Below are positions 28,442 to 30,295 of a stretch of 64,000 bases of DNA, in pieces (position 1 is the stretch's first letter; each line of letters opens with the position of its first letter). The notes under the pieces are model-generated. The model saw only the letters and a list, made by a program, of their open reading frames with translations. It ran no database searches and was not told where the DNA came from. Source of the DNA: Escherichia coli (GTDB lineage Bacteria > Pseudomonadota > Gammaproteobacteria > Enterobacterales > Enterobacteriaceae); the NCBI RefSeq assembly GCF_003334815.1, contig NZ_QOWO01000009.1; one strand, written 5' to 3'. The translations under genes and the position numbers were made by a program.

Positions 28442-30295
28442 ATGAAAATGACTTTGCCGTTTAAACCCCATGTGCTGGCGCTAATTTGCAGTGCCGGGCT
28501 TTGTGCCGCCTCTACCGGGCTATATATAAAAAGCCGCACAGTGGAAGCGCCTGTGGAACCGCAATCGACACAACTGGCTGTGTCTGACGCTGCCGCGGTT
28601 ACGTTTCCTGCAACGGTTTCCGCACCTCCCGTAACACCCGCCGTCGTCAAATCCGCATTCAGCACTGCACAAATAGATCAATGGGTCGCGCCCGTCGCGC
28701 TGTATCCCGACGCCCTACTTTCGCAGGTGCTGATGGCATCAACCTATCCGACAAACGTTGCTCAAGCAGTGCAATGGTCGCACGATAATCCACTTAAACA
28801 AGGCGATGCTGCTATTCAGGCGGTATCTGACCAGCCGTGGGACGCCAGCGTTAAATCACTGGTGGCATTTCCACAATTGATGGCATTGATGGGCGAAAAC
28901 CCGCAATGGGTGCAAAACCTGGGCGATGCTTTTCTGGCCCAGCCGCAGGACGTGATGGACTCGGTACAGCGATTGCGGCAACTGGCGCAACAAACCGGCT
29001 CGCTGAAGTCATCAACCGAACAGAAAGTTATTACCACAACGAAGAAAGCTGTACCGGTAAAACAGACAGTCACGGCACCCGTCATACCATCCAATACAGT
29101 TTTAACTGCCAACCCCGTCATTACAGAGCCGGCAACAACCGTCATTTCCATTGAGCCCGCCAATCCTGATGTGGTCTATATTCCCAACTACAACCCAACC
29201 GTGGTTTACGGGAACTGGGCCAATACTGCGTATCCGCCGGTTTATCTGCCACCACCAGCCGGAGAACCGTTTGTTGACAGCTTTGTACGCGGATTCGGCT
29301 ATAGCATGGGCGTTGCTACCACGTACGCACTATTCAGCAGCATCGACTGGGACGACGACGATCATGACCATCATCATCATGACAATGATGATTATCATCA
29401 CCACGATGGCGGTCATCGTGACGGTAATGGCTGGCAACACAACGGCGACAACATCAATATCGACGTCAACAATTTCAACCGTATCACCGGTGAGCATCTT
29501 ACTGATAAGAATATGGCATGGCGGCACAATCCAAACTACCGTAATGGTGTGCCCTATTATGATCAGGATATGGCAAAGCGGTTTCATCAAACCGATGTCA
29601 ACGGCGGAATGAGCGCCACGCAATTACCTGCCCCAACGCGCGACAGCCAGCGTCAGGCGGCAGCAAATCAGTTTCAGCAACGAACACACGCCGCACCAGT
29701 CATTACACGAGATACCCAACGTCAGGCAGCGGCACAGCGGTTTAATGAAGCTGAACACTATGGGAGCTATGACGACTTCCACGACTTCAGCCGTCGCCAA
29801 CCACTGACCCAGCAACAAAAGGACGCCGCTCGTCAGCGTTATCAGTCCGCCTCGCCTGAGCAGCGCCAGGCAGTTCGCGAGAGAATGCAGACTAACCCGA
29901 AGATCCAGCAGCGAAGAGACGCAGCGCGTGAGCGCATTCAGTCCGCCTCGCCTGAGCAGCGCCAGGCGGTTCGCGAGAAAATGCAGACTAACCCGCAGAA
30001 CCAGCAGCGAAGAGACGCAGCGCGTGAGCGTATTCAGTCCGCATCACCAGAGCAGCGCCAGGTGTTTAAGGAAAAAGTACAGCAGCGCCCACTGAATCAA
30101 CAGCAACGTGATAACGCCCGCCAGCGTGTTCAATCGGCATCACCTGAACAACGTCAGGTTTTTCGGGAGAAAGTTCAGGAGAGCCGCCCACAACGTCTAA
30201 ACGACAGTAACCATACTGTCAGGCTGAATAACGAGCAACGGTCAGCAGTATGCGAACGTCTCTCTGAACGTGGAGCAAGAAGACTGGAAAGGTAA
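28442..30295 (+). CDS. yacH: uncharacterised DUF3300-family protein with signal peptide, His/Asp-rich tract and four 32-aa tandem repeats
   Basis: 617-aa ORF; N-terminal hydrophobic signal; internal low-complexity and repeat regions read directly from sequence. Confidence 0.85.
   Translation: MKMTLPFKPHVLALICSAGLCAASTGLYIKSRTVEAPVEPQSTQLAVSDAAAVTFPATVSAPPVTPAVVKSAFSTAQIDQWVAPVALYPDALLSQVLMASTYPTNVAQAVQWSHDNPLKQGDAAIQAVSDQPWDASVKSLVAFPQLMALMGENPQWVQNLGDAFLAQPQDVMDSVQRLRQLAQQTGSLKSSTEQKVITTTKKAVPVKQTVTAPVIPSNTVLTANPVITEPATTVISIEPANPDVVYIPNYNPTVVYGNWANTAYPPVYLPPPAGEPFVDSFVRGFGYSMGVATTYALFSSIDWDDDDHDHHHHDNDDYHHHDGGHRDGNGWQHNGDNINIDVNNFNRITGEHLTDKNMAWRHNPNYRNGVPYYDQDMAKRFHQTDVNGGMSATQLPAPTRDSQRQAAANQFQQRTHAAPVITRDTQRQAAAQRFNEAEHYGSYDDFHDFSRRQPLTQQQKDAARQRYQSASPEQRQAVRERMQTNPKIQQRRDAARERIQSASPEQRQAVREKMQTNPQNQQRRDAARERIQSASPEQRQVFKEKVQQRPLNQQQRDNARQRVQSASPEQRQVFREKVQESRPQRLNDSNHTVRLNNEQRSAVCERLSERGARRLER
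29843..30200 (+). repeat. four tandem copies of a 96-bp (32-codon) repeat inside yacH (unit about SASPEQRQAVRE+MQTNP++QQRRDAARERIQ)
   Basis: Copies begin at about 29843, 29939 and 30035 (first two near-identical), with a fourth diverged copy at about 30130. Confidence 0.85.

Follow-up and report, generated by a model that had tools for sequence, protein, structure and literature searches.

YacH of Escherichia coli carries a run of histidines and aspartates that is inserted at a defined turn of its folded core. It is best explained as a disordered, selectively maintained loop of codon-slippage origin that would lie in the periplasm, bind divalent metals at several low-affinity sites as the ZnuA loop does, and thereby modulate YacH, a reading to which we give a probability of roughly 0.4. 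The gene, yacH, occupies 28442..30295 on the plus strand of the 64,000-nucleotide (nt) stretch of E. coli chromosome analysed here (contig NZ_QOWO01000009.1 of assembly GCF_003334815.1; hereafter the window) and encodes a DUF3300 domain-containing protein of 617 residues plus stop, as delimited by the list of open reading frames (ORFs) and by Pfam. Compared with MG1655 b0117 ("DUF3300 domain-containing protein YacH"), it has 3 nt differences, all of them outside the tract. In the proposed mechanism, a conserved 4-residue His/Asp/Gly-rich turn of the DUF3300 core would have been expanded by codon slippage in the Enterobacteriaceae lineage, and the loop would lie in the periplasm because YacH would be exported. 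There it would bind Zn, Ni and Cu at multiple low-affinity (micromolar) sites, as the His-rich loop of ZnuA does, and would capture or sense metal, or metal binding would alter the conformation or association of YacH. That the loop makes YacH a dedicated metallochaperone is unlikely.

The tract is real and far from random. Its densest part, the Asp/His core DDDDHDHHHHDNDDYHHHDGGHRDG, comprises residues 304-328 of YacH (nt 29351-29425) and holds 10 Asp and 9 His in 25 residues, with a net charge of -9; the loop as a whole carries about -10 at neutral pH. When YacH was shuffled 20,000 times with its composition preserved and scanned in 25-residue windows, the best window held on average 6.5 Asp plus His (at most 12) and 3.4 His (at most 8); not one of the 20,000 shuffles came up to the observed 19 Asp plus His or 9 His. 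A preliminary description of this DNA had placed a His/Asp-rich tract at 29344-29430; with 19 Asp plus His in 25 residues, beyond all shuffles, the tract stands, and those limits bracket the core within 7 nt. Comparison with homologues sets the limits of the complete insertion, DDDDHDHHHHDNDDYHHHDGGHRDGNGWQHNG, at residues 304-335 (32 residues; 29351..29446, plus strand), where a loop predicted to be disordered takes the place of a 4-residue turn. No comparable Asp/His tract was found in the other ORFs of the window. The sole other real His-containing low-complexity stretch in the window is a Met/His-rich segment of CueO (21420-21479, minus strand). The cueO ORF (21069-22658, minus strand) encodes a multicopper oxidase that is periplasmic and metal-related. 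It is about 8 kb and five genes away from yacH, and there is no sign of a link between this segment and yacH.

The insertion sits within an otherwise regular member of a large protein family. Pfam recognises DUF3300 (PF11737) as the sole domain of YacH (E 1.5e-78, score 263.8, model positions 2-227 of 227), and because this match spans residues 75-333, the tract lies inside the domain. Among 1.84 billion representative proteins, 9,568 relatives were found at E<=0.001. Two family alignments were made (A2 and A3, of 122 and 113 sequences; per-column counts are on the 122). Across the 122 sequences the layout is constant. It opens with a helical N-domain and the motif Y-V-P-x-YNP-x-VVYG; a Gly-rich hydrophobic segment then closes on (D/N)-W, and after a short turn come a V-N-I-N-V-N-R-Y-N strand and the motif W-x-H-(D/N)-P-x-H-R-x-G-V-x-Y. 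YacH matches this layout and also has the APVALYPD motif; its one deviation in E. coli is Tyr366 in place of the second His of the W-x-H...H-R motif (His in 80/122 homologues). Conservation is high at W303 (113/122), W360 (108/122), H362 (105/122) and R367 (104/122). Exactly 4 residues separate W303 from VNINVN in 94 of the 122 homologues (GRGD, GGGD, HHGD, HRRH and similar) versus 32 in YacH. These short turns are already rich in histidine, at 21% compared with 1.9% across the whole proteins, and 51 of 91 turns contain at least one. Because most homologues keep the 4-residue turn and YacH has 32 residues, the tract is not a feature of the DUF3300 family; it has grown out of a conserved turn that already tended to hold His, Asp and Gly. 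The ancestral turn lies beside the nearly invariant (D/N)302, W303, W360, H362 and R367 (29345-29350 and 29519-29542), and on these alignments the turn and the five residues together could form a conserved family site.

In predicted structures a single folded core flanks the tract on both sides. Two AlphaFold2 models were made, one of the full-length protein (mean predicted local distance difference test score, pLDDT, 73.5) and one of core residues 70-390 (mean pLDDT 86.5, predicted template modelling score, pTM, 0.86). Both agree that pLDDT falls to <50-64 in the insert between confident flanks (residues 237-303 and 336-385, about 77-95), and for this reason the tract is predicted to be a disordered loop. 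The first part of the DUF3300 core, residues 71-303 (28652..29350, plus strand; pLDDT 95-98 over 71-200 and 77-95 over 237-303), is modelled as a helical domain (71-193), a variable linker (194-236), the YIPNYNPTVVYG motif and the Gly-rich hydrophobic segment that ends at D302-W303; residues 71-200 are helical at a pLDDT of about 97. The second part, residues 336-390 (29447..29611, plus strand; pLDDT about 90-95), is conserved in the family and comprises a DNINIDVNNFN strand/helix and the motif W360-R-H362-N-P-N-Y-R-N-G-V-P-Y.

All Enterobacteriaceae orthologues examined carry the insert, at lengths of 15-36 residues; this taxonomic census covers at least 12 loci from a genome contig scan, plus organism names among AFDB50 matches. 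Most inserts start I-D-W-D-D-D-D (a few, such as those of Dryocola and RIT691, start DWH or DWDH) and continue through His runs, Asp runs and Tyr to a Gly-rich end. In all of 18 enterobacterial inserts, and in that of Dryocola as read by eye, His runs come after a poly-Asp start, and each of the 18 has at least 5 Asp and at least 3 His. Pooled, the inserts comprise 461 residues (35% Asp, 29% His, 15% Gly, 7% Tyr and 7% Asn) with zero Glu and zero Lys. The codons are equally one-sided: N[A/G]Y codons make up 95% of the insert (13 orthologues) and 30 of its 32 codons in YacH, compared with 26% elsewhere in yacH; by class the insert codons are 79% NAY, 17% NGY and 0.9% NAR, with NAR at 17% in the rest of the gene. 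In-frame slippage is visible within the species itself. Of 5,426 complete E. coli genomes, 5,417 have the tract region. Length variants of 19 (as in strain TD225-C4), 31, 32, 34 and 40 residues (as in strain ESM2.2) occur in E. coli, and each is explained by slippage: loss of 39 nt between CAT repeats, loss of CAT, gain of CATGAC, or a 24-nt tandem duplication. In one Salmonella Typhimurium isolate, 8 nt are deleted within the DNA that encodes the His/Asp tract, which shifts the reading frame (PMC10048834). On a neighbour-joining tree of the core, four or more separate clades have long inserts at this turn, several Asp/His-rich and others Gly/Tyr-rich, and related Asp/His inserts are also found in non-enteric metagenomic lineages. 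Because codon bias, in-frame variants, the frameshift isolate and independent expansions all agree, the data point to codon slippage as the mechanism by which the tract arose and varies.

The same observations bear on a rival account, in which the tract would be a low-complexity spacer of no specific function that the protein tolerates: slippage-prone GAY/CAY/GGY codons accumulated at a permissive turn, and the composition records their mutational origin rather than selection for metal binding. The codon bias and the absence of Glu and Lys, the slippage behind every E. coli length variant, the Salmonella frameshift, the repeated expansions (some without His) and the predicted disorder are all as a spacer would have them. 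So is the dispensability of yacH. Keio-type yacH knockouts are viable. Natural losses also occur, by an IS1 insertion in one E. coli strain and by a near-complete deletion that leaves about 5% of the gene in another (NZ_CM129855.1, NZ_AP043644.1). However, the pattern of polymorphism argues for constraint on residue identity. Among eight related Escherichia alleles, a sample with few sites, the ratio of non-synonymous to synonymous polymorphism (pN/pS) is 0.10 in the tract, 0.04-0.16 in the folded core segments, 0.33-0.39 in two disordered linkers and 0.19-0.24 in the C-terminal regions. The tract is under purifying selection on this measure: because its pN/pS is like that of the folded core and unlike that of the disordered linkers, it behaves like a constrained sequence and not a purely neutral one, within the limits of this small, related sample. 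Two further points tell against a mere spacer. The order poly-Asp, His run, Asp run, Tyr, His run and Gly-rich end is kept across genera whose YacH proteins are only about 50% identical overall, and there is no third-position decay to Glu, Gln or Lys, although the rest of the protein is NAR-rich. We consider a tolerated spacer a realistic alternative, if a somewhat unlikely one.

The preferred reading, a selectively maintained metal-binding loop, further depends on export. The N-terminal export signal (residues 1-29; 28442..28528, plus strand) has K2 and K8, an uncharged stretch from V11 to I29, and then K30. It is the sole segment of YacH in which the 19-residue Kyte-Doolittle hydropathy (KD19) exceeds 1.6 (1.9), and residues 9-22 are modelled as a helix. 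It would be either a signal peptide, perhaps cleaved at AAS|T (about residues 24/25), or a signal anchor that stays uncleaved. Across enteric orthologues the uncharged stretch measures 19-21 residues; Lys/Arg and a linker rich in Pro and Ala come next, and in YacH this linker is a Pro/Ala/Thr/Val-rich, low-confidence segment (residues 30-70; 28529..28651, plus strand; pLDDT 43-51; pN/pS 0.39). By a heuristic test, 105 of 122 homologues have signal-peptide-like N-termini, 8 of these with a lipobox. Because export signals recur across the family, the bulk of YacH, loop included, should be periplasmic. The signal peptide and periplasmic location proposed in the preliminary description are thus upheld as far as export goes (K2/K8, the uncharged 19-residue stretch and 105/122 of the family).

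An opposite topology, in which the Gly-rich segment (residues 284-301) is a transmembrane helix that leaves the loop and the basic tail in the cytoplasm, draws on the hydropathy of this segment in the family (median KD19 1.51, with 45 of 122 members at 1.6 or above) and on the strongly basic C-terminal tails, which the positive-inside rule would place inside. In E. coli, however, the KD19 of the segment is just 0.78, both models pack it as short strands in the core that continues past the loop (pLDDT 77-95; pTM 0.86), and the flank directly downstream is extremely acidic. We therefore reject the transmembrane helix in E. coli and regard a cytoplasmic tract as highly improbable.

The closest parallel to the tract is the loop of the E. 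coli periplasmic zinc-binding protein ZnuA (residues 119-143; 7 His and 8 Asp). YacH (DWDDDDHDHHHHDNDDYHHHDGGH) has DDDDHDH and a DHHHG-like piece in common with it. The two are alike in being inserted in a folded domain and near-equal in composition, and the YacH loop is predicted to be disordered, like that of ZnuA, and probably periplasmic. Composition, shared strings and low pLDDT thus give YacH the disordered His/Asp-rich loop that is one of the marks of ZnuA. The preliminary description had likened the tract to periplasmic metal-binding tracts, and these shared strings make the resemblance concrete. YacH does not, however, have the two-lobed fold of ZnuA and the cluster A-I solute-binding proteins (PF01297), and yacH shows neither the Zur regulation, for which a consensus scan is a weak test, nor the adjacent ABC importer of znuA. 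In Citrobacter koseri ZnuA, deletion of the loop, which is disordered in crystals, removes two of at least three Zn sites, and its role as chaperone or sensor has been called enigmatic (PMC8900738). A second parallel is Pseudomonas aeruginosa PA4063, a periplasmic protein in which two disordered loops rich in His provide Zn sites of micromolar affinity and for which a chaperone or sensor role was proposed mainly from the loops; it is exported, as YacH should be, belongs like YacH to an otherwise unassigned family, and has disordered loops that present His/Asp ligands on a surface, as the YacH loop may do (PMC8561739). The folds differ, ferredoxin-like in PA4063 and DUF3300 in YacH, and PA4063, unlike yacH in the data found, is induced by zinc deficiency and encoded in a zinc-uptake operon.

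His-rich tracts of the RcnA, SlyD, HypB and Hpn type, which serve to store or deliver metal, bind Ni, Co or Zn. Like the YacH tract, the RcnA loop (16 His in 25 residues in E. coli), the SlyD C-terminal tail and the HypB and Hpn-type tracts combine a high density of His with interspersed acidic residues. Unlike YacH, these proteins are cytoplasmic (the topology of the RcnA loop aside) and serve dedicated Ni/Co pathways, and the Glu, Cys or Gly-Cys motifs of their tracts are absent from that of YacH. By its resemblance to the ZnuA and PA4063 loops, metal binding by the YacH loop in vitro is chemically very likely.

Several observations weigh against a metal-binding function. Natural alleles range from 19 residues with 5 His to 40 residues with 15 His, and because they span 5-15 His, the exact number of sites is not critical. 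Slippage of N-A-Y codons alone would give the composition of the tract, Glu and Lys being absent from all 461 pooled residues, and bona fide metal loops (ZnuA, RcnA) contain Glu whereas YacH-type inserts contain none. At least four clades expanded the same turn, some with Gly/Tyr-rich rather than His-rich sequence. Upstream of yacH, scans for the Fur, Zur, NikR, CusR and CueR consensus sequences, a weak test, gave nothing above chance; the best Zur match was 13/23, with 0.38 such matches expected there by chance. No transporter or metal gene lies near yacH, whose neighbours acnB and lpdA belong to central metabolism, and no metal, localisation or structural study was found in the open literature on yacH and DUF3300. 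What is reported for yacH concerns regulation by CpxR, dependence on Rob, induction by ampicillin and a protamine phenotype, and not metals (PMC9600279, PMC7537768, PMC8865558). YacH also falls in no metallochaperone or metal-binding-protein family in the Pfam, NCBIfam and PDB searches, its family being DUF3300; NCBIfam returned no family and the PDB sequence search only a His-tag artefact. Among non-enteric homologues with Asp/His inserts, one has its gene on the strand opposite an ars operon some 1.5 kb away, which is not a convincing context, and another is encoded on a short contig. Of the preliminary description, the resemblance and the export thus survive, and metal binding is chemically likely, but no evidence was found that links yacH to metal homeostasis; a metallochaperone role is unsupported, given the absence of a metalloregulator box upstream and of metal genes nearby, the DUF3300 family and the lineage-specific insertion.

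In another account, the loop is a polyanionic switch that responds to pH or charge. Below about pH 6, protonation of some ten His would offset the negative charge of the Asp residues, and the switch could gate contact with the protein's own basic repeats, with cationic peptides or polyamines, or with Mg/Ca-bridged envelope polymers. The charges are opposed, at -9 over residues 304-328 versus +17 over the tail (residues 456-617; the median of family tails is +18). In one study, deletion of yacH raised survival on protamine, and its transcription was lowered by protamine and cecropin A, partly in a CpxR-dependent manner (PMC9600279). A long Asp/His insert is moreover typical of enteric bacteria, which meet large swings of external, and hence periplasmic, pH, the link to pH being our inference. 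Yet this account rests on composition entirely, no pH phenotype of yacH was found in the literature, which counts against it, non-enteric metagenomic lineages have related Asp/His inserts too, and the protamine phenotype, from a single study, is not mapped to the loop. We judge a charge switch unlikely. A further proposal is that the loop is a periplasmic metal (or metal-plus-pH) sensor on the turn beside Trp303, Trp360 and His362 and gates the Cpx-regulated effect of YacH on susceptibility to cationic peptides; we hold it to be quite doubtful.

The tail itself consists of Gln/Arg-rich helical repeats (29807..30196, plus strand) in 32-residue units, QQRRDAARERIQSASPEQRQAVREKMQTNP, supported by model helices and by Tandem Repeats Finder, which gave a 96-nt period at 29842-30062. 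Repeat copy number varies among E. coli alleles, with genes of 1758/1764 nt versus 1854 nt, and orthologues of other genera have differing numbers of (S/T)-P-E-Q-R-Q or P-T-A-Q-Q-Q-Q-R-R units. The YacH repeat S-A-S-P-E-Q-R-Q-A-V-R-E-K resembles L-L-T-P-E-Q-Q-A-V-L-N-E-K of CpxP, which, with Spy and ZraP, is a periplasmic stress chaperone; CpxP is Cpx-regulated, as is YacH, which would be periplasmic too. The SASPEQRQAVREKM units align with two CpxP LTXXQ motifs at the right spacing (YacH residues 451-585; CpxP at locus L023, 2821-3321). In a Smith-Waterman comparison of the YacH tail with CpxP the score was marginal (z = 3.4), with 4 of 1000 shuffles reaching the observed score. Neither YacH nor 10 orthologue tails gave a Pfam match to LTXXQ (PF07813), a PDB profile search gave no match to CpxP, Spy or ZraP, and no similarity to Spy or ZraP was seen. 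With a marginal pairwise score and no profile support, membership of the repeats in the CpxP/Spy/ZraP LTXXQ family was rejected.

In the window, yacH lies between acnB (25490..28240, minus strand) and lpdA (30366..31823, minus strand). This order is kept in Escherichia, Atlantibacter, Kluyvera, Buttiauxella, Franconibacter and other Enterobacteriaceae (at least 12 loci), and yacH evolves far faster than its neighbours: between enterobacterial genera YacH is 48-58% identical versus 91-99% for AcnB and LpdA. The gene is present in 5426/5426 complete E. coli genomes, about 1% of which are without a full-length match. Within E. coli its nucleotide identity drops to about 90%, unusually low for a core gene. 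Upstream of yacH, a generic promoter/terminator scan and scans for the CpxR and marbox consensus sequences gave nothing above chance. In two of four non-enteric loci a DUF2950 gene lies directly downstream of the DUF3300 gene (L019, 3291-4199; L029, 1967-2689), the two DUF2950 proteins being 40% identical to each other. No DUF2950 homologue is encoded in the E. coli window, and enteric yacH appears to have lost this conserved partner.

YacH is the product of a core E. coli gene and belongs to a very large exported family (>9,500 clusters at 50% identity). The loop is its sole part with an obvious chemical property and is thus a cheap experimental entry point, of moderate, specialist interest whichever way the outcome falls. 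Should the loop not bind metal, it would be a clean case of a slippage-generated low-complexity insertion under purifying selection. Should it bind metal in vivo, YacH would be a new component of periplasmic metal buffering in enteric bacteria, and metal or pH could be tied to Cpx-controlled resistance to cationic peptides. If the loop is indeed a sensor, it would provide the first functional handle on the DUF3300 family.

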